Shown piece after piece: positions 11,450 to 64,000 of a DNA stretch of 64,000 nucleotides. This DNA comes from a phage. The stretch is taken from assembly GCA_029945195.1 (NCBI GenBank), contig GCA_029945195.1_4117.1; one strand, 5' to 3'. A model generated the notes under the pieces. The model searched no databases and was not told where the DNA came from. It saw only the letters and a program-made list of their open reading frames with translations. Position numbers and translations under genes: made by a program. The stretch's first letter is position 1, and every line of letters begins with the position of its first letter.

Positions 11450-11515
11450 AAGCATCAGACATAAAGTTTTCAAGCGACACAAGATGTGAGTTTGAAAAAA
11501 AAAGAAAAAAAGTGA

Positions 11516-11543
11516 TTGACAAGTTGAAACGATGTGATATAAT
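11516..11543 (+). promoter_or_regulatory. sigma70-type promoter P2 (TTGACA-N16-TATAAT, extended -10)
   Basis: Perfect -35 and -10 hexamers with 16-nt spacer and TGn extended -10; same gatgtgata.aat architecture as P1; A-rich UP-like tract upstream. Confidence 0.65.
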
Positions 11544-11604
11544 GTTCACATCAAGACAGCAAAGAGATTTACCTTTTAAACACACGGATGATTCATGAAG
11601 TAAC

Positions 11605-14580: not shown

Positions 14581-14584
14581 AAGT

Positions 14585-14612
14585 GGGACAACTTATAAAA
14601 ATATGATATAAT
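14585..14612 (+). promoter_or_regulatory. sigma70-type promoter (GGGACA-N16-TATAAT, extended -10)
   Basis: -10 TATAAT at 14607-14612 preceded by TGa; weaker -35 at 14585-14590. Confidence 0.5.
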
Positions 14613-34087: not shown

Positions 34088-35577
34088 TCTGTGTCCTTAT
34101 GTATGCGATAAACAGTATTAGGTTTAACTGCGTCATGTAATGGAACTTTGTTATCACTATTTACAAACTGTGTAAGTGCTAAGTCTGCACCTTCCCACGG
34201 TTTTCTTCCACCATAATCAAAAATAACCCATGAATTCTTAGTTGCATTGAATTCCCATAACGTAACTGGAGTATAATCGGTGCGATAGAAATAGTCACCA
34301 TCTACTGCATCAGTTGGGAACATATTTCCTTCAGGGACTGTACCTCGTGCTGGTGGAATTTTAGGACGATAATCTTGTTGCGAATCAATATTACCATATA
34401 CACAATTGGACGTGAATGGTTCATTGACATAAGTTACCTTTGGTTCCCCCCACTTGTCATCATTATACTGATAAATGTGTGGTTCTTTATAAAAAATACA
34501 AAAATCTTCCACATCTTCTGGTGGAACATCACTGGTAGTATATTCTACATCACAATTTAACCATTTTTTAGCACTTTTATCATATTGATACAACGTATAA
34601 CCTGTCACATCTGCGTCATTTTCTTTAAAGAAGAAGTCACCATCCATTGGTTTTCTGGGAAAGATGGTTCCACGCTTGACTTCCACAGAAATCCATGTAT
34701 CATTAACAAACTCTTTGAGTACTGGGTATGTTTTTTTCAAAAAATACATTCCATCGGCAGGTTCTTCTGGAAAATCATAACCGTTAAGCATATATTTGGA
34801 TAAATCTACTGTATCAGGTCGATCATCATACAAATGTTCATTTGTATAATGAATATAGGGTACTTCATCATCAGCTTGCATGATGATACGGTTCATGATA
34901 TCCATTTCATTGCCATAGTTACTGTTTTCCGACGAACCATCATCGGTATTTCCATTACCATTATTAGGGTCATCTGGATTATCAGGATAATTATTGTTAC
35001 CGAGTAAATCGGAGTACTCAGGTGAGTCGGTTAGCGGTTTAACTCTAAGTTTATAAATGTGATGTTGCCACGTAACCGAGTATCCCTCAGATGTACGAAA
35101 TGCATCTTGGACGACATAGAAGCGGTTTAGACCTGTATCTTTACCCAATACATCAAAATCACGTAAATTTGGTAGTTCTATCACATCCCCTGGCATGATT
35201 TTTCTACCTAAACGCTGCATCATTGTATTATAATGGATTGTGATGTCCATAGTGTTGAAATTAAAGAACAATCCTGGGATTTTCAAGTCTGGAGTTGCTT
35301 CTTGAACTTGATAGACACAACTAAGTGTGATAGCTTCAAGGTTGTAGTTTCTGTTTGGTGTGTCACCAAAAATTAAATCGCCAATACTTGACACAACTGA
35401 TCCTGAAGATGTATAATCACCTCCATAGGATAAGTCAGTGTTGTCAGCAACTTGTTTTGGACCGACATATGCATAAAGCCACATGTCAACTCCACCAATG
35501 TTGTATTGTTCAGCAATGGCAGAATCAATGAACTTGTAATCATTGGTTCTCCCTTTTTTCCACATTCTATATGTCAT
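34084..35577 (-). CDS. hypothetical protein
   Basis: ORF track start at 35589 is a TTG; the ATG at 35577 (MTYRMWKKG...) has a GGAG RBS. Confidence 0.55.
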   Translation of the reverse strand: MTYRMWKKGRTNDYKFIDSAIAEQYNIGGVDMWLYAYVGPKQVADNTDLSYGGDYTSSGSVVSSIGDLIFGDTPNRNYNLEAITLSCVYQVQEATPDLKIPGLFFNFNTMDITIHYNTMMQRLGRKIMPGDVIELPNLRDFDVLGKDTGLNRFYVVQDAFRTSEGYSVTWQHHIYKLRVKPLTDSPEYSDLLGNNNYPDNPDDPNNGNGNTDDGSSENSNYGNEMDIMNRIIMQADDEVPYIHYTNEHLYDDRPDTVDLSKYMLNGYDFPEEPADGMYFLKKTYPVLKEFVNDTWISVEVKRGTIFPRKPMDGDFFFKENDADVTGYTLYQYDKSAKKWLNCDVEYTTSDVPPEDVEDFCIFYKEPHIYQYNDDKWGEPKVTYVNEPFTSNCVYGNIDSQQDYRPKIPPARGTVPEGNMFPTDAVDGDYFYRTDYTPVTLWEFNATKNSWVIFDYGGRKPWEGADLALTQFVNSDNKVPLHDAVKPNTVYRIHKDTE

Positions 35578-35619
35578 GTTTGTCTCCAAAATAAATCGGG
35601 TATATCTTTATTTACCTTG

Positions 35620-35647
35620 TAGACAAACCGTAAGAATGTGATATAAT
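35620..35647 (+). promoter_or_regulatory. sigma70-type promoter (TAGACA-N16-TATAAT, extended -10) upstream of the Clp-like ATPase gene
   Basis: Same gaatgtgatataat -10 context as the promoters at 11422 and 11516. Confidence 0.55.
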
Positions 35648-35687
35648 GTTTATTAATTAGAGTGACGTGAATCACATAGGAGAATAC

Positions 35688-37976
35688 ATGAATCTTACTC
35701 AATTGTTCAAAAAAAGCGACGAACTGGCAACATCTCTAGGTCATACATTCTTGACTATTGACCACGTAAGTGCCACAGTACTGACTATTGATAGCATCAA
35801 GAACGTATTTGAAGATATGAACATTGATGCAGACAAACTGCACAACCGCCTGATGAACTATCTTAAAAATACAACAGTTCCACATGCACCAAAAAGTGTT
35901 AAAGATGAAGACGCGAATCGCACTTCACTTCTAGTGAATCGCGTTGTACATGAGCTTTCTAAAAAATCAGTTATTGAACAACTAAAAAGTGATGATTTTT
36001 CGATTGATGCATATTTTGTTCTATTCGAATGTCTGTCTTTCCCTAACACAGCACTAGAAGCTGCGTTAAAAGAAGAAGGTGTTAGCTGTACTGAAGCTGC
36101 ACGTGCATTACAGAAACACGTTGAGTCACTTGATAAGGGTATCAACTTACAAAGTATTAATGACGAACCGATTGGAGATAAAAAAGTGGCCCAACAGCAG
36201 CAATCATCTAAACAAAAAGGTTTGGAAGACTATACAACGAATCTAACTGCTCTTGCAAAAGAAGGCAAACTAGATCCTATGATTGGTCGCCAGAAAGAAT
36301 TGTCTGCATTGATTGAGACTCTTGCTCGCAAAACCAAAAAGAATGCTATTCTTACTGGTGAAGCTGGTGTAGGTAAAACACAAATCATCGACGGTCTTGC
36401 ACAAGCTATTGCTGACGGCAACGTACCTGAACACCTGAAAGACGTTGAAATTCTTTCACTAAATGTTGGTGCATTGACTGCTGGTACTAAGTATCGTGGT
36501 GAGTTTGAAGAACGCATCGACAATTTGCTAAAAGAACTAAAGAAACGTGAAAATACTATTGTTTTCATTGATGAAATTCATATTATGGTTGGGGCTGGTT
36601 CCGCAAGTAATGGTTCTATGGACATGAGCAATATGCTTAAGCCAGCACTTTCACGTGGTGAGATTCGTGTAATTGGTGCAACAACATATGATGAATATCG
36701 TAAAAATATCGAGAAAGATAGTGCATTAACTCGTCGTTTTATGAAAATTGATGTAGTTGAGCCGTCAATTGATGAAACTCGTGCAATTGTTAATGGTTTG
36801 AAACCAACTTATGAAAAATTCCATAATGTTGAGTTCACAACTGATGCAATGGATGCTGTAATTTCTCTCAGTGATAAATTCCTGAAGAATAAGCACTTCC
36901 CAGATAAAGCAATTGATCTAATGGACGCTGCTGCTGCAAAAGTTCGTTCACGTGACAACAATAGTAAGCTTATTACTGCCAATTTGATTCAAGAAGTTGT
37001 TGCTGGTATTGCCAATTTGGATATCAACGTGGTTGCATGTACTGAAAGTGATCGTATGCGTAATCTACCAGATGCACTACGCTCACGTGTATACGGTCAA
37101 GAGGAAGCTATTCAAAAATTAGTTGATAACGTGATGGTAGCTCGTGCAGGACTGCGTGACAAATCTAGTGTTCAGGGTGCATTTATGTTTGTTGGACCAT
37201 CTGGTACTGGTAAAACAGAAATTACCAAAGCATTAGCAGATGCAACTGGTGCGGAACTGATTCGCTTTGATATGTCAGAATTTTCTCAAGAACATACTGT
37301 TTCTAAACTAATTGGTTCACCTCCAGGTTATGTTGGGCATGATTCTGGTAACGGTTTACTGTTGGATAAAATTGAGCAGTTCCCTAATGCAGTACTGTTA
37401 CTTGATGAAATTGAAAAAGCAGATCGTAAAGTACTACTAACCTTCCTACAGGTTTTGGATGAAGGTCGCCTGACTGGTTCACAAGGTAAAACTGTATATT
37501 TTAATAACGTAACTGTTATTATGACTACAAACCTTGGTGCGGCAGATTCAACGAAGCGTAGCATTGGTATGAGCGGTAGTGATACTGCACAAGACAAGGC
37601 AATTAAAGCATTCTTGCCACCAGAGTTTATTAACCGTATTGATAGTATCGTTACGTTTAAAGACCTAAGCAGTGAAGCTATTGACAGCATCATTGATAAG
37701 TTCATGGGCAGTTTGAATGAACAAGTCAAAGACCGCAATGTTAAAGTTACATTGACAAAAGCTGCACGTGAATGGCTTGCGAAAAATGGGGTAAAAGTTG
37801 GTATGGGTGCACGTCCAATGAAACGTACCATTGAACAAAACATTCGTGTACCACTAGCTAAAGAAATGTTGTGTGGTTCACTTGTGAATGGTGGTAACAT
37901 TACATTTGATGTTATTGATGGTAAAATCGGTATTAAACCGAAACGTTCCAAAGCTGTAGATAAAGCACTGGCATAA
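35688..37976 (+). CDS. ClpA-type double-AAA+ unfoldase (Hsp100 family)
   Basis: ORF track start at 35667 is a GTG; the ATG at 35688 has an AGGAG RBS. D1 Walker A GEAGVGKT and Walker B IVFIDEIH; D2 Walker A GPSGTGKT and Walker [10 protein letters not shown]; sensor GARPMKR; no ClpB-type middle domain; IGM tripeptide at the position of the ClpA ClpP-docking loop. Confidence 0.8.
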
Positions 37977-41000: not shown

Positions 41001-44000
41001 GAGTTCAACTGTACTGTTTTCACGACCAATCGCTTTCCAATAAATTGAATCGCGTGATTGTGATTTAATATACAATGTCCAAATGTTTTCACTATCGGTA
41101 ACTCTGATAATATCGCCAACTTGGTAGTTTTTAGTATTAGCATCTTCTAAGCTTGACTCTTGAGTATAAGTCGTGTTACTATCATACCCAACATCATACC
41201 AATCAGCATATGACCAGTACTGAGTCATGTCCAATGAAGTTCCCAGTGATTCAACATAATCAGATTGTTTAATCATTTTATGTTGACCCTCACCTTTGTT
41301 CTCTAACGTTATAGTAACAACACTACCCGCGTTTGCTGGACTATTCATTAACTGAATATATCCATTTTCGTCGAAGTGAATAAAATAAACAGCACTAGAA
41401 GTTAATGGATTTGGTAGATATCCACTAGTACTTAAAATAACAGCGTCATTTTCTTTAAATTTATCACTTTCAACTGCAATAACTAATTCATTATTGTAAG
41501 ACAATACACGGAAAGAAACTTCATTCGGATTAACTTCAGTGGTTTTAACATTAAACACATCTTCCATAACAACACTATTAGTGGTTATGTTTTGTGACCT
41601 ATAATAATTATTAGCACTTTCTACAAAGTTTCTACGAGCTTCTATAACATTTTGGAACCAAGTTTTGTTTGAACCTAAACCGTTATCAACATCTGGATAT
41701 AATAAATTAATCACAGAACCTGATTCAGTTGTTTCTTGACCAATTAGTGAGTTCCACATTGAATCCCAAATTAGTGGGTTAAAGTTATAGCTGTCACCTT
41801 CTTTACATAGTTGATACTGGTCATGTTTAACAACTTCAGTACTATCCATGTAATAAGAAACAGTTAAAATACTGGTATCATCATTCACTTTAAATTGCAT
41901 ATTACTAAGAATAAACGAGTTTTCATTGATTGGAGCGAACCAAGGAATGTTTAGCTGTGTTGGATCTTTAATAATACGAGCAATGTCAGTACATGATTTT
42001 GTTCTGGTATGTAGTGGTGGTACATAAATTGTATCACGTACCCAGAAATAGTATTTTGTCACATAACTATCAGTTGAACTATCATATTCCAAAAATGTAC
42101 TATAATTATCTTCAAGTGCAGTTCCACTTGGTAGATACATAGTATTATTTTTGTTTTTCTTAGCAACATCTTTACAGTATTTGTCCCAGTTATATGGCTC
42201 AACTGGTGAACAAACCCACTCTAACACATCAATTGTACTATGTGGTAATAAACGACCCCAGTTGTAACGTTTGTATTCATTGGTTGCATCAATGTCAACA
42301 TTACCGTCTGCGTCATAAATTGCACGAGTATAATCCAAATAAAATGCAGTGCTAGTGTTCCACCATACTTGACCAACTTTATCAGCACCCCAAGCCTGGA
42401 TTAACTCTCCATTACTATTATACTGTGCAGGATCAACTGGTGAAGTATATGTTACGTTTTGCATAGCCGCACCTGGAATAACACCATTAATTGGGTCATA
42501 AACGTTTAGATATAGCTCAGTAATGTTAGTACGTTCATCATATGTCGTTGGACGATCAAATAAAGTACTTTGTGGTGCTTTAAAACTATATTTCTTGTCA
42601 ATGTAAGCTTGACGTTCATCAGTACTGGCAAAACGTGATACATAACGATACAAACGTGGACGTGTATCTGGATCAGTAAATTCAATATCAATAGAAGTGT
42701 CAAATGGAACTACCATAACTTTAGGATCAGAACCAGCAGTATAATATTGACTTTCTACTGTTAAAGTATCTGGCATAAAGTTAGTTTCATCAACAAAATA
42801 ATAATAATCACCATCTTCAAGTGGTACATTATCAGTTAAAGTTACTTTACAAAATTGTTCAGCATACACATCGGTATTTTCAATAGGTGTTATAGAAACC
42901 ATTTGCACATTAGTATCAACCAATTCAAAAATGTTCCACAAACCATTACCGTCTTTAAACATCCACACAGATTCAGGATTTTCACCTTTACCATTAGTAT
43001 AAGTTATGCGGTCATTATATGCAGTACTGAAATCTTTTGTAGTGTAAGATACTTCATCCAATGTTACTGGACCAATATCTGGAAGTTGAATGTTTTCACT
43101 TCTTCCACTACGCATCGGGAATGAGAACTTACCATTTGGACGTGTAATCCAACGAGGATCTTTACCTTGTTCGCCGAAGTATACAATATTGTTTCCATTT
43201 CCATTTGAAGTAGCGTTTACATCAAAAGATACCATTTGTGGTTGTTGTTTAAATTGGTCATTGATTAGTTTAAATTGAAGGTTTTTCTTACCATCAATAT
43301 TACCATATGTACCAATTTTAAATGCCCATTCTTGTAATGCTTTATATTCATCAGTGTCATATGATTTAGAAACACGAAGTACACGTTCTAAAACTTGGTT
43401 AGTACCTTTATCGTGAATGAATCCTTTATAGAAATCAACACGACTAACATCACTACTAATCATACGCTGTAGATAATCACGAGATTGATAACCAATCAAA
43501 TGGTTTGACAACTCTTGTAATTGTACATCACTTACTGGAGTTTCACTATCATAATAATGTTGGAAATCCGACACTAATTTTTCAAATGATGGTAGTGTTC
43601 CAGCTTCCAAGATAATAAATCCAGGAGCTTGTAGGCGACCAGTCCATGAACCAGTAATATATCCATACATTTTAATTAGTTCTTGAATAGAACCATATGT
43701 TGGCTGATAAATGTAATCACCAAAAATAGTTTTATCATCAAAAATAACAGCATGTTCATATGAACACAAACTTAAACGAATCAATGCAATGCGTTTATTA
43801 GATTCTAAAGTTCTAACAGTGAAGATATTTCCAATACGAGAAGTTTCAATTTCATATTGGCGAATACCTTGGTTATTATCATCAAGTAATGACCATACAC
43901 CACCATTATTTTGCGTAATAGATTGTACTGAACCAAAGTCTGCCCCAAATTTAGCGTTTGCAGCACTTGGGGTACAAGAAATAAATTCACCAGTTACTAG

Positions 44001-47000: not shown

Positions 47001-47984
47001 ATTACCATACTCATTACCTTTAGTGATTAGAACAACATCACCATCTTGAGGTTCACCACTTGGGCGTGATTCGGTTTCTTCTTCTGGATCTAGTGCTAAA
47101 CCATAAACACGAGTACCATCTTGCATTTTTTTCACATATACATTATAAATTCTATTGTTTTCACCATTGTTACCAATACTGGTGAATAGAATACGCATTC
47201 CATCTTGCGGAATAATACCATCAATACGTATACCACTATTAATATCTTTTTGAACGATATCTTCAGGTTTAATAATATCAGAGAACAGATCAACAGTTCC
47301 ACGGAATTTTGTACCGTAGTTAATTAGCTCAATATTTTTATTATATTCAATAATTGGTGCACGTGCACGAATAAAACGTGAATCTTGCATTAATTCTTCA
47401 GTTAATATTGAGCCATCTTCTAATGTTTCACCTAAAGTATACCAAAAGTTTTGTAGTGACCATGTATTACCATTAAGTGCTCCACGTTCCATTACAATGT
47501 AATCAGGTGAAGTAATATTATAAGAGTTTTTAGTATCCCAAAGATATGAGCTAAAATTGTTCATTTTATTTGGGTTAATAGCTGGAGTCCATGCATAAAA
47601 CTTACCGTTGAACAAACGGCTTTCATTATCGGTTAGTGCTCCATAATGATTCATGTATCCAACTAGATCATCATAAAATTGAATTGAACGAATTGTCGAA
47701 TCATCATTTTTTGAGACGTAAGCAGTGGACAACTGATAAAGTTGACGTGCTACAGTACTTTCATGTAAGAAGATATTACCAGCAGCGGCAGGAGAACCCA
47801 TATCACCAATATAGCCGTCAACTAATTCGTTTTCAGCCGGATTAAACCATTGTTGAATAACATCATCACTGACTTTTTGAATATCTTCTAAGCCTTGCAT
47901 CCACTCAGGCAATCTTTTAATAAAAAGCTTCTTCTGTACTGCTTCAGCCATCTGTGTAGGTTGAAACTTAAAATTATTAGTCAT
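38013..47984 (-). CDS. giant virion protein (~3,320 aa), probably baseplate or fibre-associated
   Basis: Uninterrupted frame of ~10 kb; the ATG at 47984 has a GGAG RBS (ORF track ATG at 48014 lacks one); sits directly downstream of the gp6-like and gp25-like genes; no motif recognised by eye. Confidence 0.6.
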   Translation of the reverse strand: MTNNFKFQPTQMAEAVQKKLFIKRLPEWMQGLEDIQKVSDDVIQQWFNPAENELVDGYIGDMGSPAAAGNIFLHESTVARQLYQLSTAYVSKNDDSTIRSIQFYDDLVGYMNHYGALTDNESRLFNGKFYAWTPAINPNKMNNFSSYLWDTKNSYNITSPDYIVMERGALNGNTWSLQNFWYTLGETLEDGSILTEELMQDSRFIRARAPIIEYNKNIELINYGTKFRGTVDLFSDIIKPEDIVQKDINSGIRIDGIIPQDGMRILFTSIGNNGENNRIYNVYVKKMQDGTRVYGLALDPEEETESRPSGEPQDGDVVLITKGNEYGNSSMYWNGSLWVRAQSKTSVNVFPKFQLYDRNGIKLDNSTTYPSSNFKGSELFGFKINYNYATDSVYGYNIELGDYNYYIYENFLQSQRYTYDHLGKEVEIDGLYYYNIIDENNEMNLQTDWVRSEEYSKQFVKQTPQVKRTDMYRVFSTVYDMEVFKEPVDGMYAYVIEVDRTYQYYKADRETYLDWHPITGDGVQIVKYDHTFELAQKVLDNDSDIIEVVVDGVDVSKYTKNVSKGQVQSITLDSTVDLDEDSVIQIRTYSSTVTPNKELGAYEVPINLQNNPYNSNIIYINQGDYTLHFQDIIQKNITRGSSDDFNDYEERLAKGLVNNGVGTKIIQNEASMLPLMAHTANEDIDLFEATMFMQSEYFRFINKFNTQMLRMYDENPSDFLQNSAANIVDAILTTINMGRDSSFPFYYDNVGSTSGFIRAFIPPTPQFLGILQAYVPEKATFLTAGSKPSCYNISHTGIISKAYRVINGVDKMDDVVYELENRIFNSIDNKFKDVDYVPVLNSDDLFPTPYFTKTEYSAEEKQTLLLRGYINFTATNGISNSTHDYDPNNWRTWNYTGTYYVVNGQSTEIPARGSWRAIYTDQYGTYRPATHPWEMFGFTQRPTWWNQEYEPTAVQVGERDSDVVYVYEALVMNEQGDLVPSGLWDIDGTIGDSSTGTILFGDRRGQYDKYKRFGVQPFKITKTGNKTSSGIDICVVEYIAPEILGLVSGSLNHRAEPWTYGDMGDMEFTYMNTTLFAYDQMMLLYKAKPAQFANYFWDTRNDNLKEVFTDGSQFLYGDTRKRINFDKNTVVHGENSTRTIGYQMFVSDHLMYQNKNITTKYGDVVRSSYINVGHKIGGFTKADQLTFNAKSFGLISQENQTIGLVRSNNIRDEQMSAIKITWNGSAYQIDGYDLVGAKFKYKLPVKNGRKVTLKLENRNVVHYNEWKSEASIEYGKVFNSYQEVYTFICGYGEYLKEHGWIFEDVNDSGAQQDWNTIAKDFVIWSQNSLVTGEFISCTPSAANAKFGADFGSVQSITQNNGGVWSLLDDNNQGIRQYEIETSRIGNIFTVRTLESNKRIALIRLSLCSYEHAVIFDDKTIFGDYIYQPTYGSIQELIKMYGYITGSWTGRLQAPGFIILEAGTLPSFEKLVSDFQHYYDSETPVSDVQLQELSNHLIGYQSRDYLQRMISSDVSRVDFYKGFIHDKGTNQVLERVLRVSKSYDTDEYKALQEWAFKIGTYGNIDGKKNLQFKLINDQFKQQPQMVSFDVNATSNGNGNNIVYFGEQGKDPRWITRPNGKFSFPMRSGRSENIQLPDIGPVTLDEVSYTTKDFSTAYNDRITYTNGKGENPESVWMFKDGNGLWNIFELVDTNVQMVSITPIENTDVYAEQFCKVTLTDNVPLEDGDYYYFVDETNFMPDTLTVESQYYTAGSDPKVMVVPFDTSIDIEFTDPDTRPRLYRYVSRFASTDERQAYIDKKYSFKAPQSTLFDRPTTYDERTNITELYLNVYDPINGVIPGAAMQNVTYTSPVDPAQYNSNGELIQAWGADKVGQVWWNTSTAFYLDYTRAIYDADGNVDIDATNEYKRYNWGRLLPHSTIDVLEWVCSPVEPYNWDKYCKDVAKKNKNNTMYLPSGTALEDNYSTFLEYDSSTDSYVTKYYFWVRDTIYVPPLHTRTKSCTDIARIIKDPTQLNIPWFAPINENSFILSNMQFKVNDDTSILTVSYYMDSTEVVKHDQYQLCKEGDSYNFNPLIWDSMWNSLIGQETTESGSVINLLYPDVDNGLGSNKTWFQNVIEARRNFVESANNYYRSQNITTNSVVMEDVFNVKTTEVNPNEVSFRVLSYNNELVIAVESDKFKENDAVILSTSGYLPNPLTSSAVYFIHFDENGYIQLMNSPANAGSVVTITLENKGEGQHKMIKQSDYVESLGTSLDMTQYWSYADWYDVGYDSNTTYTQESSLEDANTKNYQVGDIIRVTDSENIWTLYIKSQSRDSIYWKAIGRENSTVELNDMLYADYSVHNDNGSLSNREINVRKALALLKNSFDLHQSEIVFDMVKYVHVEQSVVDWVFKTSYIYIVGLEQSLVQNYSNDNLINQIVEYFEEVKPYRTKIRSQIEQKTSDDDLIKGLCNDLDPNGYIFVDGSWVKTEKDIWDYEYAQFNEITQKWEQVGSLPSDFITPNRRFQEIDIIMHYDNIQCKPNADLASINELVSVNNKYQSNEKDAVSNYELQRYIYSFPEYSEETFDLLIAYQMQIYYPELDVTLGTAYGVNQWYKDHAEDLEATDEFTATLERVYKESTQNDMFTDLRQYVQYNTLANRLKLYKDISDEKIHDEVGCGFSGLTYNDNPSTRLPLGFSSSNDYNYGYFEISSELYQKYISLIKDKNPDASDYEVKVKLEVEYGVYVYRYDEVGGDTRFYTDAIHVLAGMRGLFDKDATDKYEKAEEILSKTPIDIYAITMIPRKYVYLNVNGVYQSIPDEQSIDDFMEDYFITNGEMIELAEINLDDLPLDQNNPMYSDYQYILDSITEAKYFNDMNAFDNLALESQTSSIKWEVKDDEVDPYIVDISDINPSGRDVGQIRFTVDGYGFDNVSLVQLRDNSRYQTEGMAIINPYKHTEAIVSIPSYAKIENDINKTTSKFDEKYFYRVRSINSLTEAEIVDNDLSDGDKVMIFTPDGEDFVRYQNHTWETILRVSNIKNNTTPILFTVRNTGKETIELIDESTGAVLRYDNITLAQQNEPVQPLALNIVRVRTFADPEFVKNGIKLYEQNRNYTIDVINYDVFYDTTLNGGKYNDGITPDDVDVWIISNEIFDVDGITIDNGYNLPITGAGVLSELARTKMTDSLEINVIEYDSSVIQPFRNNEGIWVYGYPMVDGMYIGVVGGTVTNITTISEENTTYVSQPKSISPYSIRNNVLSGSAANMNDIISIGYEKVEVRNANNLLRGVMYSAEHDFKLNTTYSFNGINLGNYDMLKRYTQNSYTIDLSVYTDSLQVSGNDIKNILLVK

Positions 47985-60542: not shown

Positions 60543-62690
60543 ATGCTAAACATTACACGTATATCTATGAGGAACTTCTTTTCATTTGGTAATGCACCAC
60601 AATCAATTGACTTGAATGGTTCCGACATTTCATTAGTACTGGGTCAAAATAATGATGCAGTTATTGAAGGTGGTGACAGTACCGGACGTCGAAATGGTGT
60701 AGGGAAAAGTGCTATTATTCAAGGATTAGTTTTTGGATTATTTGGTAAAAGTATTGGTAACGATATTAAAATTCCTAACCTAGTCAATAAAACTAATGGA
60801 AAAAATTGTGAAGTAGTTGTAGAGTTTGAAAAAGATGGTGTACAATATCTGGTTGAACGTGGGAGAAGTCCCACGTATTTCAATTTTGTTACTTTAGGGA
60901 AAGATAATAAAATTGAAGATGAATCAAGGGGAGAAAAGAAAGACACACAAGAAGATTTGAATGAAATTCTTGGTATATCTCAATTATTATTTGAACATAT
61001 TGTAGTACTGAATGCTAACGTTGAACCTTTCTTAGCTTTATCCACACAAAAACAACGTGATATGATAGAAGAACTTCTTGGAATAACACAGTTGACGGAA
61101 AAAGCTGAAATGCTAAAGGAGATGTATAAGGATACTAAACGTTTAGCCGAACAAGAAAAGTTCAAAAATGAAACTGTAGCTGCAAGTAATGAACGTATTC
61201 AAAAAAGTATTGAGGCACTACAAGAACAGGCAAACCAGTTTGAAATTGATAAAAATAATAGAGTATCTAAGTTAAATGAAGAGTTGAATATATATAAAAC
61301 TTTAGACTTTAATGACCTCTATGAAGCTGCGGACATAAAAGAGAAAGCTCTTATTCATAACGCAAAGCGTGGTGAAATCGAACGCCGTGTACAAGAGTTG
61401 GCTTTAAAATTTGATGCATATGACCGTGAACTTGAAAGATCTAAAAGAGCATTAAATCTAAGCATTGATAAGCTAAAAACTATTGATATTAGTGCAGAAT
61501 TGGAAAATCATAATGAGTTGGAGATATGGAAACAGTTAGAGGGTATTCTAAAAGAGAATAATAACCAAAAACGTTTCAAAGAACAAAAACTAAACTCACT
61601 AAAAATAGCTTTAAAAGGATATGAATGTTCAATTAATGCTGAAATTGACAAATTATCAACAGTTGAAAACAGCAAATGTCCACTTTGTATGTCTGAATTG
61701 GAACATAACGAACATACTTCTTCAATTAAAGACAAAATCCAAAGTACTATTAATGATCTTCAAGCTAAAATTGATAGTTCTTCTTCTGAAATTGAAACAT
61801 TACTTCAAGAAATTGATAGTATTGAGATTTTTGATATGCCACCTAAGCCTGTGACATATTATAATACACTTTCAGAAGCACAAATGCATGAACATAAGCT
61901 TCAAGAATTGGTCAGAAAGAGTGAAGAAGAACAAATAAACATCTATGCAAATGAACTTATGTCATCATATGATGAACTTAACTCATATGAACTAATGGAA
62001 GTTCCAGATACATTAAACAAATATGAAGTTAAAGAGTTAGAAATGACTGTAAATTCATTATCACAGCAATTAGATCGTGAATTGAAGACTACTAACACAT
62101 TTATTAGCCAAATTAATACCCTGAAGACTGATTCTTTAGTACCAATTGATTATAGCGACTATAATAATCTTGATAAAATGTCAAATCACCAAGATTTCTT
62201 GGTTAAATTACTTTTAAACAAGGATTCTTATGTCCGTAAACGTATTATTGAGCAAAATATATCATATTTGAATACACGACTTCAGTACTATATCGATATG
62301 TGCGGTTCTGAGCATAATGTTGTGTTTTTGAATGATTTGAGTGTTGAAATTGAGAAGAGTGGACAGTACTTTGACTATAAACAGCTTAGTAGAGGTGAGC
62401 GTACAAGGGTAAACATCGCATTATCTTGTGCTTTCCGTGATACATATGAGTCATTATACCAAAGTATTAATATTCTTATCATTGATGAGATGATTGACCA
62501 AGGTCTTGACTCAAGTGGTGTTCTACGTGTGTGGTCTATCTTCCAAGATATGGCTGCTGTACGTGGTAAGAACGTTTATGCTATTTCCCACAGAGAAGAG
62601 TTACTATCTAAGACTGAAAAAATCCTCAAAGTTGTTAAAGAGGACGGTTTCAGTACTGTTGAATATGCAACCCTTGATGATGTTTTCTAA
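60543..62690 (+). CDS. Rad50/SbcC-like ATPase (T4 gp46-like)
   Basis: 715 aa; N-terminal Walker A GRRNGVGKSA, long coiled coil with CPLC zinc-hook-like motif, C-terminal LSRGERTR signature and Walker B LIIDEM. Confidence 0.8.
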   Translation: MLNITRISMRNFFSFGNAPQSIDLNGSDISLVLGQNNDAVIEGGDSTGRRNGVGKSAIIQGLVFGLFGKSIGNDIKIPNLVNKTNGKNCEVVVEFEKDGVQYLVERGRSPTYFNFVTLGKDNKIEDESRGEKKDTQEDLNEILGISQLLFEHIVVLNANVEPFLALSTQKQRDMIEELLGITQLTEKAEMLKEMYKDTKRLAEQEKFKNETVAASNERIQKSIEALQEQANQFEIDKNNRVSKLNEELNIYKTLDFNDLYEAADIKEKALIHNAKRGEIERRVQELALKFDAYDRELERSKRALNLSIDKLKTIDISAELENHNELEIWKQLEGILKENNNQKRFKEQKLNSLKIALKGYECSINAEIDKLSTVENSKCPLCMSELEHNEHTSSIKDKIQSTINDLQAKIDSSSSEIETLLQEIDSIEIFDMPPKPVTYYNTLSEAQMHEHKLQELVRKSEEEQINIYANELMSSYDELNSYELMEVPDTLNKYEVKELEMTVNSLSQQLDRELKTTNTFISQINTLKTDSLVPIDYSDYNNLDKMSNHQDFLVKLLLNKDSYVRKRIIEQNISYLNTRLQYYIDMCGSEHNVVFLNDLSVEIEKSGQYFDYKQLSRGERTRVNIALSCAFRDTYESLYQSINILIIDEMIDQGLDSSGVLRVWSIFQDMAAVRGKNVYAISHREELLSKTEKILKVVKEDGFSTVEYATLDDVF

Positions 62691-62696
62691 TTAAAG

Positions 62697-62727
62697 ATAA
62701 AGGGAGCCTTAGCTCCCTTTTTTTATA
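62697..62727. terminator. bidirectional rho-independent terminator
   Basis: aagggagc-ctta-gctccctt hairpin flanked by an A-tract and a T-tract, between convergent genes. Confidence 0.75.
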
Positions 62728-63200
62728 TCAACCATATTTAATTTACCGTCCTTAATCAGCTTTCTAGCTTGCTTTACACGAGCAGTAGTGTTACTACCAG
62801 GGACAACTCCTAACCCTTCCAGAATCGCGTTTTGCTGTGTTGCTGGAAGCCTTTTAAACTTATTAACATCCACAGTTAGTGCAGTGTGATGTATAACTTG
62901 TTCATCGTCAGGAATGCTGTTATTACGCTCTAAGTAATCAGCAAGATTTCTGAGTACCTCATATAATGGTTTATCAGTTAAGTGCTTCATATATCGATTG
63001 AAGCTGTTTTGTACCTTTCCTTCCCAAGCATTGACTTCATTTTGAAGAACTTGTCTACAATGTTGGTTACCATAGTGGTAGTGATCCAGTACTGGTTTAG
63101 TTATTGGTTCTTTAATTATAGGATCTATTCCATTTTGTTTCTTTAGTAATTCGTTTCGATAGTTTGCAGCATCCTTACTATCTTTTAATCTTTTTTTCAT
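62709..63200 (-). CDS. endonuclease VII-like Holliday junction resolvase (T4 gp49-like)
   Basis: 163 aa; LDHYHYGNQHCRQVLQNEVNAWEGKVQNSFNRYMKHL resembles the T4 endo VII core (LDHDHE...RGLLCNLCNAAEGQMKHKFNR, from memory); GAGGA RBS. Confidence 0.6.
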   Translation of the reverse strand: MKKRLKDSKDAANYRNELLKKQNGIDPIIKEPITKPVLDHYHYGNQHCRQVLQNEVNAWEGKVQNSFNRYMKHLTDKPLYEVLRNLADYLERNNSIPDDEQVIHHTALTVDVNKFKRLPATQQNAILEGLGVVPGSNTTARVKQARKLIKDGKLNMVDIKKGS

Positions 63201-63292
63201 AATTCCTCACCAAACTATTTGTTATCAAAATATTTATAGATTAGTTATTTGCAATATTTTAAGTACTTAATGAATATTTTTATAAAAATAGT

Positions 63293-63320
63293 GAGACAAC
63301 TTTAAAGTTTGTGCTATAAT
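63293..63320 (+). promoter_or_regulatory. sigma70-type promoter (GAGACA-N16-TATAAT, extended -10) with no downstream ORF
   Basis: -10 TATAAT at 63315-63320 preceded by TGc; AT-rich UP-like tract upstream; nearest downstream ORF of 60 aa or more is absent. Confidence 0.5.
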
Positions 63321-63326
63321 GTTTGT

Positions 63327-63781
63327 TGTAGTAATGACAATCCTGTTGAATGCAGAAATGCATATAAATTAGAACCTGATCCTATCGAAAATGTAGATGG
63401 CAGATGAGCAGTTCAACAGTGCGATGAGCAAAAGAAACCCGTTAGATGTGGGCATAGTTTGAACCCCTCACGGCAATGCGGCTCAATAAAGAACTCCGAT
63501 AAGCATACAGAGAGTTCCTCGATAGACATATAAGGATCGCACCTTACCAGATTTGCTAAGGGAGTTTATTAAGTGATTTTAATAAACAGCCTGAAGTTTG
63601 ATTGTATAGACTTTCAGGTGAGTGTCAGGATGATTAAGACTGACGACCGTTGCACATGACTGCGATAGAGAGAAACAGAGCAACCCGCTTTCGTTCTTAA
63701 TATATTTTTAAGAAATTCGCAATACAATAAATGCTGAAACCATCAGCGTCAAGAAATAGAGACTTCATTGTCTCTTTTTTA
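63327..63781 (+). ncRNA. candidate non-coding RNA of unknown class (~450 nt) bounded by promoter and terminator
   Basis: No ORF of 60 aa or more on either strand; GC content locally higher than the flanks; ends at hairpin agagac-ttcatt-gtctct plus T6 (63758-63780); no tRNA cloverleaf recognised by eye. Confidence 0.3.
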
Positions 63782-64000
63782 TTGTCTTCATTCCCCTGCG
63801 GGGGGATGAAAATGTCCTCAACAAATCCCGTCAAGTATTAAATCTTTTAAAGTTCTTTATAATTAATTTAATTAAATGAATATGAGTTACGTAGTAACGA
63901 ATATTCTTCAGCTAACGAATGAAATGAGTTAGATGAATCCAATAATATTAAAATTAATCCTTTCATAATTCAATTCAAATAATTCTGTAGTTTAAAACCA

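Follow-up and report, generated by a model that had tools for sequence, protein, structure and literature searches.

Genomic setting of the non-coding gap

The window analysed here is a stretch of 64,000 nucleotides of phage DNA. Close to its end lies a gap of 836 bp, including positions 63201-64000, without a conserved open reading frame, tRNA or Rfam match. The gap sequence was identical to that of Escherichia phage 121Q (the window being 121Q-like DNA), and in the 121Q record nothing is annotated across it. The gap reaches to approximately 64037, past the end of the window. An earlier note, made from the letters of this DNA alone, had described the region as free of ORFs of 60 aa or more and as more GC-rich in its interior than in its AT-rich flanks. 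In our analysis the longest ORF in 63201-64000 was of 45 aa, the GC content was 0.39-0.49 inside the unit as compared to 0.19-0.25 in the flanks, and every sequence feature that had been named was recovered within two bases of its given place.

Upstream, the gap is bordered by a gene for endonuclease VII, divergent from the RNA unit (Table 1). The AT-rich spacer between the two must house the promoter of this gene, and the consensus scan returned a weak promoter-like site there on the minus strand (63228-63199). The spacer is not kept as a part of the RNA family. The next gene 3ʹ of the RNA copy in the window is convergent.

Table 1. Features of the 63201-64000 region and its upstream neighbour (two strands of a helix are separated by a slash).
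Feature	Position	Strand	Basis and remarks
Endonuclease VII gene	62709-63200	-	divergent from the RNA
AT-rich spacer	63201-63291	.	GC ~0.19-0.25; between endonuclease VII gene start and RNA promoter
Putative promoter, TGAGACA-N13-TGTGCTATAAT	63292-63320	+	consensus scan and conservation
-35-like element, TGAGACA	63292-63298	+	followed by 13-nt spacer, then extended -10
Extended -10, TGTGCTATAAT	TGn 63312-63314, TATAAT 63315-63320	+	
5ʹ domain	63343-63419	+	RNAalifold, pair counts
P1	63343-63350 / 63413-63419	+	encloses P1a and P2; helix 1, compensatory at 7/8 pairs
P1a hairpin	63351-63355 / 63359-63363	+	helix 2, compensatory at 5/5
P2	63376-63386 / 63396-63403	+	conserved loop CGAAAATGTA; helix 3, compensatory at 7/8
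Central domain	63425-63565	+	compensatory: helix 5 at 4/5, helix 7 at 6/6
P3	63425-63429 / 63481-63485 plus 63439-63442 / 63470-63473	+	central domain
P4 hairpin	63491-63496 / 63512-63517	+	central domain
Long-range helix, GATAG / CCATC	63521-63525 / 63740-63744	+	
Hairpin	63531-63534 / 63544-63547	+	central domain
Unpaired AAGGGAG	63558-63564	+	AAGGGA invariant in 28 sequences
3ʹ domain	63589-63753	+	most conserved part of the RNA
12-bp hairpin	63589-63600 / 63607-63618	+	3ʹ domain
Hairpin	63622-63626 / 63642-63647	+	3ʹ domain, which also holds invariant GACCGT
P10	63661-63665 / 63717-63721	+	3ʹ domain; encloses two hairpins
Hairpin GAGAG...CTTTC	63668-63672 / 63688-63692	+	inside P10; invariant loop AAACAGAGCAACCCG
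Hairpin	63694-63698 / 63710-63714	+	inside P10
CGTCAAG		+	3ʹ domain; conserved, at core end
Putative intrinsic terminator	63758-63781	+	stem AGAGAC/GTCTCT (hairpin 63758-63775), 6-nt loop, T6; terminator scan
C4/G6 clamp hairpin, TTCATTCCCC-TGC-GGGGGGATGAA	63787-63810	+	near-invariant
Conserved box CCTCAACAAATCCCGTCAAG (CAAATCYCGTCA box)	63816-63835	+	AT-rich TATTAAA stretch follows
Second module	63878-64000	+	runs off the window; then AT-rich tail
Hairpin A, GAATAT..GTTAC-GTA-GTAAC..ATATTC	63878-63906	+	
Hairpin B, loop GAATGAAATGA	63907-63937	+	

Promoter and terminator

The putative promoter joins a -35-like motif to an extended -10 element, and the transcription start is predicted at approximately 63325-63328. 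In the 28 homologues TATAAT was invariant, the TG nearly so and the -35-like motif conserved; the TGnTATAAT sequence, the -35-like element and the conserved position assign the site to the sigma-70-type extended -10 promoters. The extended -10 promoter of the earlier note was therefore present, but it did not turn out to be a one-off near-consensus site, since the class is used genome-wide. Its 29-nt form occurred eight times in 121Q under a strict definition, the 121Q tRNA genes carry promoters of the same class, and TGnTATAAT was found 85 times on the plus strand versus 16 times on the minus strand of that genome. The class matches 'Promoter 1' of phage CBB, TGAAACG...TGnTATAAT (PMC5259590 Table S6).

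At the other end, the hairpin followed by T6 that had been noticed earlier was confirmed at 63758-63781. Its stem (helix 18) showed compensatory changes at 5/6 pairs and the T-run was conserved, which is what would be expected of an intrinsic terminator. In the 62600-64000 segment there were five terminator-like sites versus 0.7 expected; they stem from three hairpins, two of which were counted once per strand. The terminator was missing from about a quarter of the family members and from a divergent metagenomic subgroup (subgroup 2). In such terminator-less copies the RNA unit fuses to the downstream sequence. Counted from the predicted start at ~63327 to the end of the T-run, the unit is ~455 nt long, close to the ~450 nt estimated in the earlier note.

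Secondary structure of the RNA

The 455-nt stretch folded at -111.7 kcal/mol, with z = -2.8 in comparison to shuffled sequences. To obtain a consensus fold, we ran RNAalifold on an alignment of 28 non-redundant copies. The fold comprised 102 pairs, of which 62 displayed compensatory (two-sided) changes, with 40 expected from shuffles. Across the 28 copies, 93.2% of the paired cells could pair, compared to 78.1% in shuffled and 38-47% in slid alignments, and the covariation score was 0.411 as opposed to 0.146 (shuffled) and ~0.08 (slid). The observed fold values were reached by none of the 500 shuffles. The covariation analysis of related genomes that the earlier note had proposed thus supported the fold over both kinds of control, and with compensatory changes exceeding shuffled and slid alignments alike the unit belongs among conserved structured RNAs in the generic sense. 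In a separate alignment of 11 sequences, compensatory change was seen at 44/75 pairs.

Several G-U pairs were fixed, for example those of columns 482-489 and of columns 555-575, which were GU in 28/28 sequences. Because fixed G-U pairs would become C-A on the opposite strand, the folded strand is the plus-strand RNA. The predicted 5ʹ, central and 3ʹ domains are listed in Table 1. The 3ʹ domain was retained even in subgroup 2, and a covariance model built from it together with the downstream hairpin and box (R1) matched the window at 63643-63835 with 187 bits and E = 3e-41, this being the sole copy there.

The conserved tail downstream of the terminator

In the earlier note the unit ended at the terminator, with a GC-clamped stem-loop lying just beyond. 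Both elements are there, the stem-loop being CCCCTGCGGGGGG within the hairpin at 63787-63810, but the conserved unit runs on past the terminator into the GC hairpin, the box and a second module. The conserved tail of the RNA extends to at least 63835, and the second hairpin module continues past 64000; its end in 121Q is marked by a bidirectional terminator, which lies at approximately 64012-64037 in window numbering. The C4/G6 hairpin is the most invariant part of the whole cassette: the G-run and its flanking bases were invariant in 28 sequences, and the hairpin was retained in the island copies described below and in subgroup 2. Its stem varied almost only by G-U wobble, with two-sided change at 1/10 pairs. 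The box repeats the CGTCAAG motif of the core end, and in subgroup 2 CGTCAG is replaced by CGAAG at both places.

In most relatives the second module takes the form TGAATTGAG-stem-AGTAC-RAACGAAGTGA-GTAC-stem-ACGAAAATTCTTTGACATTCGAAGAATGGCAAATC and abuts either the ribosome-binding site of the downstream gene or a terminator. The TATTAAA stretch after the box might conceivably be a late promoter: the late genes of 121Q show ATAAATA, which the window sequence does not match and relatives match only in part.

Comparison with known RNA classes and protein genes

No protein, tRNA or curated RNA family explains the sequence. ARAGORN found no tRNA or tmRNA genes in the whole window, in keeping with the failure of the earlier note to fold a convincing tRNA. 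The scan proposed there against Rfam was run with Rfam 15 (4,227 models, which should include GOLLD, ROOL, OLE, HEARO, group I/II introns, RNase P, 6S and riboswitches) and the window gave no match at the gathering thresholds. At E <= 10, scattered matches of 5.5-29 bits appeared, below gathering scores of 36-160, and none recurred among the window and six homologous loci; the lone tmRNA match scored 5.5 bits (E = 8.1). No description of the RNA turned up in the literature, which we searched for phage names, topics and exact strings of conserved sequence.

We also weighed the trivial explanation that the region is ordinary, being either a spacer in which promoter and terminator matches arose by chance or a stretch of tRNAs or short protein genes. 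Related records do carry annotations of two to four 'hypothetical proteins' over the region, placed by some annotators, and promoter-like matches in the consensus scan occurred at the chance rate (6 seen versus 6.1 expected). Short genes below the 60-aa cutoff had been named in the earlier note as one outcome that would overturn its reading; of eleven small ORFs of 21-45 aa, each was intact in only 0-4 of 27 homologues. Together with the lack of tRNAs, the nucleotide identity of 67-77% across distant genera in a non-coding gap and the massive covariation, this refutes the ordinary explanation, to which we assign a practically negligible chance. The suggestion of an unclassified structured phage RNA has held up, on the compensated pairs, the shuffling test and the empty tRNA and Rfam searches.

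Paralogues in jumbo phages

BLAST and nhmmer located exactly four copies of the element in 121Q, all on the plus strand, all in annotation gaps and ~70% identical to each other. They lie near 90.7, 193.3, 248.0 and 327.1 kb of that genome. Every RaK2-like jumbo phage that we examined has homologues at four to five places in its genome, and homologues are also present in metagenomic relatives. The RNA is a member of a family with four paralogues in 121Q, not a singleton, and the family reaches host chromosomal islands. The clades of paralogues predate the phage genera, which means that the copies have long been maintained. In the window, BLAST, nhmmer and the covariance model found no second copy; a match at 11505-11546 was discarded as such, since it covers only the promoter segment of the query (63284-63323).

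The distribution of the copies bears on the possibility that the cassette is a selfish mobile element, or the relic of one, which moves between islands and the genomes of jumbo phages and does little for whatever carries it. Copies are many and occupy varied intergenic positions, some of the sites are not syntenic between genera, HNH endonuclease genes are found close to two of the 121Q copies, and the cassette is carried by islands with different integrases. On the other hand, purifying selection on the fold is strong in all copies, we saw neither terminal repeats nor a transposase, and the within-genome identity of ~70%, with clades older than genera, indicates no recent transposition. We therefore find such a cassette very improbable.

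The surroundings of the copies also raise the question of a cis-regulatory leader, that is, a very large attenuator, riboswitch or processive-antitermination element timing the downstream operons, in which the fold would decide between a stop at the terminator and read-through via the second module. The order of promoter, structured RNA and terminator would suit such a device, as would the location of three of the four 121Q copies at the head of long plus-strand gene blocks, the second module ending at the ribosome-binding site of a gene in many relatives, and one paralogue class that instead has a terminator-like hairpin plus T-run right after the promoter. The CGTCAR motifs flank the terminator and in subgroup 2 have changed together, as might be expected of alternative pairing. 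We tried the pairing of the two motifs in turn with one upstream strand: some copies allow it, but in the window copy the upstream strand pairs only weakly with the distal box, and we did not adopt it. The copies in the window, in Serratia and in a metagenome-assembled genome (MAG) face convergent genes, so these copies have nothing downstream to regulate and are not leaders of the next gene, as a riboswitch or attenuator would be. Moreover, the downstream genes are mutually unrelated and, to our knowledge, the known leaders (put, riboswitches, T-boxes) are several-fold smaller than this ~430-nt RNA. A leader is in our opinion improbable. In some paralogues and relatives a co-oriented downstream gene does occur.

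Copies in host chromosomal islands

Among 5,426 E. coli genomes, two had a full-length copy on a chromosomal island, and full-length copies were also present on islands of Serratia and of an Enterobacteriaceae MAG; plasmids gave no match to the element. Of the consensus pairs, 86-90% are kept in the island copies, which differ from the copy in the window by 11-22 double changes. Three islands carry integrase or recombinase genes, and two of these also carry defence genes (Hachiman, AbiGi or PDC-M45). On four unrelated islands the cassette was the only phage-derived piece found, and among the island genes examined there was no recognisable replication or transfer gene. Neither on the islands nor elsewhere does the RNA have a constant protein-coding neighbour, and hence no partner can be named. 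A 323-aa neighbour in Serratia was rejected as a conserved island partner: it shows no relation to the neighbours in E. coli, and the RNA is absent next to its homologue in Pectobacterium. PADLOC gave no match for the immediate Serratia and MAG neighbours.

Islands that combine an integrase with defence genes and lack transfer genes have been reported to be packaged specifically by a jumbo phage (PMC12595487). The islands of E. coli and Serratia sp. 2723 resemble these I55/JPTI55 islands of Pseudomonas in being small, in having an integrase and defence cargo and in lacking transfer genes; they differ in host and phage, and no shared RNA or cis element is reported in that work (PMC12595487).

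Such a precedent is compatible with the cassette being a cis-acting, RNA-primed replication origin or packaging handle, comparable to ColE1 RNA II and the T4 R-loop RNAs. In that case the hybrid would form, or the DNA would unwind, at the C4/G6 hairpin, box and AT-rich stretch; the phage would have multiple origins, one at each of its four to five copies; and the islands would be satellites whose single copy lets them be replicated or packaged by an infecting jumbo phage. ColE1 RNA II is a structured primer of ~550 nt that needs a G-run, and the T4 origins are middle promoters forming R-loops, of which oriF adjoins the baseplate genes 25/26. The RNA copy of the window adjoins a baseplate-hub gene, which may parallel the position of oriF in T4. 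Like ColE1 RNA II and T4 oriF and oriG, the cassette would give a promoter-driven structured transcript of ~500 nt that ends shortly after a G-run; like the T4 origins, it is present in several copies per genome. Further arguments for an origin are the dispersal of the copies on one and the same strand, the sequence conservation without covariation 3ʹ of the terminator that is followed by AT-rich DNA, the islands on which the cassette is the sole phage-derived piece, and the promoter class, which in CBB is concentrated 5ʹ of DNA-synthesis genes (PMC5259590). Against it, the terminator precedes the G-run and in most copies splits, with apparent efficiency, the structured RNA from the hybrid site; known primer RNAs manage with a far simpler structure than these ~100 covarying pairs and numerous invariant loops; and no plasmid carries the element. 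GC skew showed nothing at 90, 193, 247 or 326 kb in 121Q, and since it tracks gene orientation it is uninformative on origins. Altogether, we regard an origin or handle as unlikely, but as the foremost competitor of the explanation preferred below.

Interpretation and comparison with other systems

As the best explanation we propose that 63292-63781 is a stand-alone gene for a trans-acting structured non-coding RNA of ~455 nt that founds a new family; we place our confidence in this proposal slightly above even. Host RNA polymerase, or a polymerase with a phage sigma-70-like factor, would start at the extended -10 element, and the RNA would fold to three domains closed by long-range helices, as the sequence predicts. 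Most transcripts would stop at the intrinsic terminator and some would read through to the GC hairpin and box. The folded RNA could work in trans, with AAGGGAG, GACCGT, AAACAGAGCAACCCG and CGTCAR binding a conserved protein or complex, and its role might be that of a scaffold, a decoy or a catalytic RNA. Its action may be timed to the early-to-middle phase of infection. In a conflict between jumbo phage and island, the island copies may either provide this activity or vie for it.

Some observations count against this proposal. Conservation 3ʹ of the terminator comes without covariation, which a role at the DNA level or in protein binding explains equally well as, or better than, a role as RNA. 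The terminator-less copies run into downstream sequence, in many relatives the second module lies at a ribosome-binding site, which is leader-like, and the RNA has no constant neighbour that would point to a partner.

Among the closest parallels are GOLLD and ROOL, large structured RNAs of phages and prophages that are included in Rfam and for which the formation of multimeric cages has been reported. Like these, the RNA is several hundred nucleotides long, has many covarying helices and invariant junctions, occurs in phages and bacterial chromosomes and is an independent RNA gene, not a leader. It differs from them in giving no covariance-model match even at E <= 10, in its four to five old paralogues per virulent jumbo-phage genome and in the downstream hairpin, box and second module tied to it. 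A likeness to ToxI, a type III toxin-antitoxin RNA, and to pseudo-ToxI, its copy in phages, lies in an RNA common to host defence loci and infecting phages; unlike ToxI, with its 36-nt repeats, this RNA is one large fold, without tandem repeats or a conserved neighbouring toxin gene.

RNA-seq of the jumbo phage PA5oct, a distant relative of the 121Q/RaK2 group, revealed four ORF-less transcripts, ncRNA001-004, of 236-619 nt (PMC7318152). Towards its 3ʹ end, ncRNA004 shows by eye a C-run/G-run hairpin, a tail with CCCG and a hairpin similar to that of the second module, ATATGAGTT...ACGAATAT. Homology to ncRNA001-004 was not supported, as neither HMM nor covariance model matched significantly: in PA5oct the best nhmmer hit had E = 1.4, and R1 was silent at the ncRNA004 locus and gave E >= 0.76 elsewhere.

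Large complex conserved RNA folds are rare, and the classes that are understood are almost all ribozymes, riboswitches or ribonucleoprotein cores. With ~100 pairs, invariant loops, four to five copies kept through the history of a group of 350-kb phages and a presence on defence islands, the RNA presumably has a central role in infection. A more specific reading, possible though rather unlikely, is that the cassette is either a shared handle (an RNA-primed origin or packaging signal) or a new class of ribonucleoprotein or catalytic RNA needed by the phages and mimicked by the islands as a decoy. If the former were true, this would be the first cis determinant of jumbo-phage satellites, with islands copying the signal to be replicated and carried; in either case, the function of this large RNA fold would be one so far unseen in phage biology. 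Jumbo-phage satellites have just been demonstrated, and with the cassette the connection of chromosomal islands to virulent jumbo phages can be put to the test at once. In dozens of deposited genomes, the region is at present unannotated or covered by spurious 'hypothetical proteins'.

Results and Discussion

We found that the transcription-unit-like cassette in 63201-64000 encodes a large RNA whose fold is conserved; the earlier note had thought a structured RNA possible. In the first alignment, of 11 sequences, compensatory changes were seen at 44 of the 75 predicted pairs. Alignment A3 comprised 28 non-redundant copies with an RNAalifold consensus of 102 pairs, and its covariation exceeded that of shuffled and slid controls. 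The cells were paired in 93.2% of cases (78.1% after shuffling, 38-47% after sliding by 1-3 columns), two-sided changes occurred at 62 of the 102 pairs (40 and 20-29, respectively), and the covariation score was 0.411 (0.146 and 0.06-0.09). The observed values were not attained by any of 500 shuffles. The relatedness of the sequences is kept by the slid controls and not by shuffling; together, the two are decisive for the conserved fold. Several pairs were G-U in 28 of 28 sequences, and since these fixed pairs would be C-A mismatches on the opposite strand, it is the + strand RNA that folds. The 455-nt unit folded slightly better than its shuffled versions (z = -2.8), and none of the 11 small ORFs in the region was conserved, the number of homologues with a given ORF intact being 0-4 of 27.

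Across 63201-64000 the window shows 100% identity with Escherichia phage 121Q. This RaK2-like jumbo phage (Asteriusvirus) has a genome of 348.5 kb; subtracting 263,308 from a 121Q coordinate gives the window position. The gap holding the cassette is unannotated in most deposited relatives, and 2-4 'hypothetical proteins' are called in a few. The features read from the sequence in the earlier note were recovered: no ORF reached 60 aa (the longest was of 45 aa), the extended -10 promoter, the terminator and the GC-clamped stem-loop are in place, and the interior is richer in GC than the flanks (0.39-0.49 vs 0.19-0.25). In a motif scan of the gap region, promoter-like matches were at chance level (6 found, 6.1 expected) and terminator-like matches above it (5 found, 0.7 expected). 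ARAGORN detected no tRNA, and the Rfam 15 scan gave no match at gathering thresholds, with scattered noise only at E <= 10; the RNA has no relative among curated RNA families. At the other end of the window, positions 1-200 had no exact match in KM507819, while the last 200 bases did match exactly; the window probably derives from a near-identical relative or carries a substitution there.

Features of the cassette, its surroundings and the 121Q copies (window positions unless stated)
Feature	Coordinates	Strand	Remarks
Endonuclease VII gene	62709-63200	-	start borders the 836-bp gap
Small ORF	stop ~64037	-	end is the other border, just past the window; then baseplate-hub gene
Promoter	63292-63320	+	TGAGACA-N13-TGTGCTATAAT
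P1	63343-63350 / 63413-63419	+	encloses two hairpins
P3	63425-63429 / 63481-63485	+	central domain
P4	63491-63496 / 63512-63517	+	central domain
Long-range helix	63521-63525 / 63740-63744	+	GATAG / CCATC
AAGGGAG	63558-63564	+	unpaired, invariant
12-bp hairpin	63589-63618	+	
3' domain	63643-63721	+	best conserved; GACCGT through GAGAG-AAACAGAGCAACCCG-CTTTC
CGTCAR, first site	63747-63753	+	core end
Terminator hairpin	63758-63775	+	followed by T6
GC hairpin	63787-63810	+	TTCATTCCCCTGCGGGGGGATGAA; contains the GC-clamped stem-loop
CGTCAR, second site	63829-63835	+	in the box
121Q copies	90,279-90,727; 192,836-193,316; 247,457-248,063 (121Q)	+	BLAST; the fourth is the window copy

The RNA is kept as several ancient paralogues throughout a jumbo-phage group. 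BLAST against the assembled 121Q genome revealed four + strand copies, each in an annotation gap and with pairwise identities of ~70%; with nhmmer the count for 121Q was again exactly four, and the window had one. In the 'phages' collection 72 records matched, from jumbo phages of Escherichia, Klebsiella, Salmonella, Erwinia, Yersinia, Cronobacter, Pectobacterium, Serratia and Xanthomonas, with 67-77% identity across genera and 4-5 places per genome. A wider search with a 24-base gapped pattern from the invariant core yielded 45 loci in metagenomes, three in bacterial genomes and 32 in IMG/VR, the last almost all on 350-370 kb contigs or fragments thereof. A neighbour-joining tree places the origin of the phage paralogue clades before that of the phage genera. 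The age of the copies, together with selection on every one of them, contradicts a purely selfish element, which we consider very improbable. A ~2 kb stretch of 121Q outside the window (135,194-137,161; 35,195-37,160 of the sequence stretch L005) lacks annotated genes in an otherwise densely annotated genome; it holds no copy of the family.

The earlier note had ended the unit at the terminator. A predicted terminator is indeed there, with a covarying stem (5 of 6 pairs) and a conserved T-run, but conservation goes on downstream, and the terminator is missing in about a quarter of copies. In the GC hairpin 3' of it the G-run is invariant and the stem varies almost wholly by wobble changes. This hairpin is followed by a conserved box, CCTCAACAAATCYCGTCAR, and, past an AT-rich spacer, by a second module, whose hairpins covary and have conserved loops, RAACGAAGTGA (GAATGAAATGA in the window); in most relatives ACGAAAATTCTTTGACATTCGAAGAATGGCAAATC comes next. 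The second module ends at the ribosome-binding site of a downstream gene or at a terminator; the window copy leaves the window at 64000. A divergent metagenomic subgroup has another 5' domain and keeps the 3' domain, GC hairpin and box, with no terminator in between. In this subgroup (L062, L066, L070, L081 and L084 vs the rest of alignment A7) CGAAG replaces CGTCAG at both CGTCAR sites, a concerted, non-complementary change that suggests recognition of both sites by a single factor, or else alternative pairing. Both the second module and the junction 3' of P1 also contain ACGAAG-like motifs.

The RNA is common to phages and host islands. Four bacterial chromosomal settings contain full-length copies behind a promoter of the same type, and none was found in the plasmids searched. 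The Serratia fonticola GTA-SR07 copy lies by a duplicated rof gene and adjoins genes for a large serine recombinase and two ParB/RepB-like proteins. The Serratia sp. 2723 copy follows a large serine recombinase and precedes, in this order, a 323-aa protein, Hachiman HamA and HamB, AbiGi and a small resolvase; in an Enterobacteriaceae MAG the copy is flanked by thiM and a CI/LexA-like repressor. Among 5,426 complete E. coli genomes, two carry the RNA. The island of strain LR-29-1 (~11 kb, ffs/ybaA interval) has the cassette in a gap of 1.4 kb. Its genes include those of a tyrosine integrase, disrupted by IS3, of a small resolvase and of PDC-M45, a candidate defence system (DuOB, DUF488, DUF4326/mSLOG). 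Three islands have integrase or recombinase genes, two of those also defence genes, and no protein gene was consistently next to the RNA. Of the consensus pairs, 86-90% are retained in the island copies, which differ from the window copy by 11-22 double changes. In the tree, the copies from Serratia and the MAG branch off deeply as a group of their own (~60% identity to any phage copy), and the E. coli copy falls inside the phage copies (75% to the nearest).

On the S. fonticola chromosome (L051:4775-5490), the two rof (Rho-inhibitor) copies are tandem and near-identical, at the island edge beside tilS, and the duplication may be a product of integration. In LR-29-1 (L100:20,960-21,030), ~400 nt 3' of the cassette, three ATCGATCGTT-like repeats, set close together, resemble iterons or operators, in a 700-nt non-coding stretch before the next island gene.

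The promoter is one of a class spread over the phage genome: 121Q has eight sites of the strict form, TG(R)(R)AC-N13-T(R)TGnTATAAT, all of them on the + strand, and for TGnTATAAT there are 85 + strand and 16 - strand matches, some of which precede tRNA genes. The motif is 'Promoter 1' of phage CBB, of the 'divergent RpoD-like' class, concentrated upstream of DNA-synthesis genes (PMC5259590). Another strict member (TGGGACAACTTATAAAAATATGATATAAT, 14584-14612) precedes a protein-coding gene of the window.

A cis-acting cassette, serving as an RNA-primed origin or a hitch-hiking handle, would account for this promoter class in common with replication genes, for the copy number, for the sequence-only conservation past the terminator, and for just this piece being carried by unrelated islands, in which the genes examined included none recognisable as a replication or transfer gene. 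Islands of such kind can be specifically packaged by a jumbo phage, as a recent study showed, with no shared RNA reported (PMC12595487). We regard this main rival as unlikely, and lean towards an RNA that would act in trans, because the window, Serratia and MAG copies are stand-alone units with convergent neighbour genes, most copies have their own terminator, and so much covarying structure, with so many invariant single-stranded motifs, is typical of RNAs that bind a macromolecular partner or are catalytic. A leader or attenuator, compatible with some paralogues, does not suit the stand-alone copies and seems quite improbable.

In one paralogue class a terminator-like hairpin and T-run lie immediately 3' of the promoter (A3 columns ~60-100), and no terminator follows the core (121Q 192k copy, L006:~42,775-42,810; GAP32_b, L024; U42923_a, L022; U31417_b, L033), which suggests paralogues under different regulation. 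A short modular hairpin of conserved sequence (~TTT-TACAATATAGATCCGTCCAAAATT) occupies two different peripheral insertion sites among family members, island copies included (A3 columns ~415-455 and ~590-620; e.g. ~830-880 of locus L016). The 121Q 247k copy has it (L007:~47,690-47,730 and ~47,880-47,915) and the window copy lacks it; it looks like a plug-in module for protein binding or tertiary contact.

GOLLD and ROOL are the closest analogues by kind, but by their Rfam models the RNA belongs to neither. Literature searches by phage names, topic and exact conserved strings, of incomplete coverage, found no description of the RNA, so that an earlier one is possible; from these comparisons, we rate the cassette as a putative new RNA class. 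In the distant relative PA5oct, RNA-seq revealed four ORF-less transcripts (PMC7318152). The 3' end of its ncRNA004 resembles the window cassette by eye only, homology having no support from HMM or covariance model. This end and the downstream sequence (L101:3130-3420) contain a C-run/G-run hairpin, TTTCCTTCCC-AAAC-GGGGAGGAAA, then a CCGCCCGAATATCA tail, and a hairpin ATATGAGTT...ACGAAAACGAATAT with a likeness to window 63878-63906.
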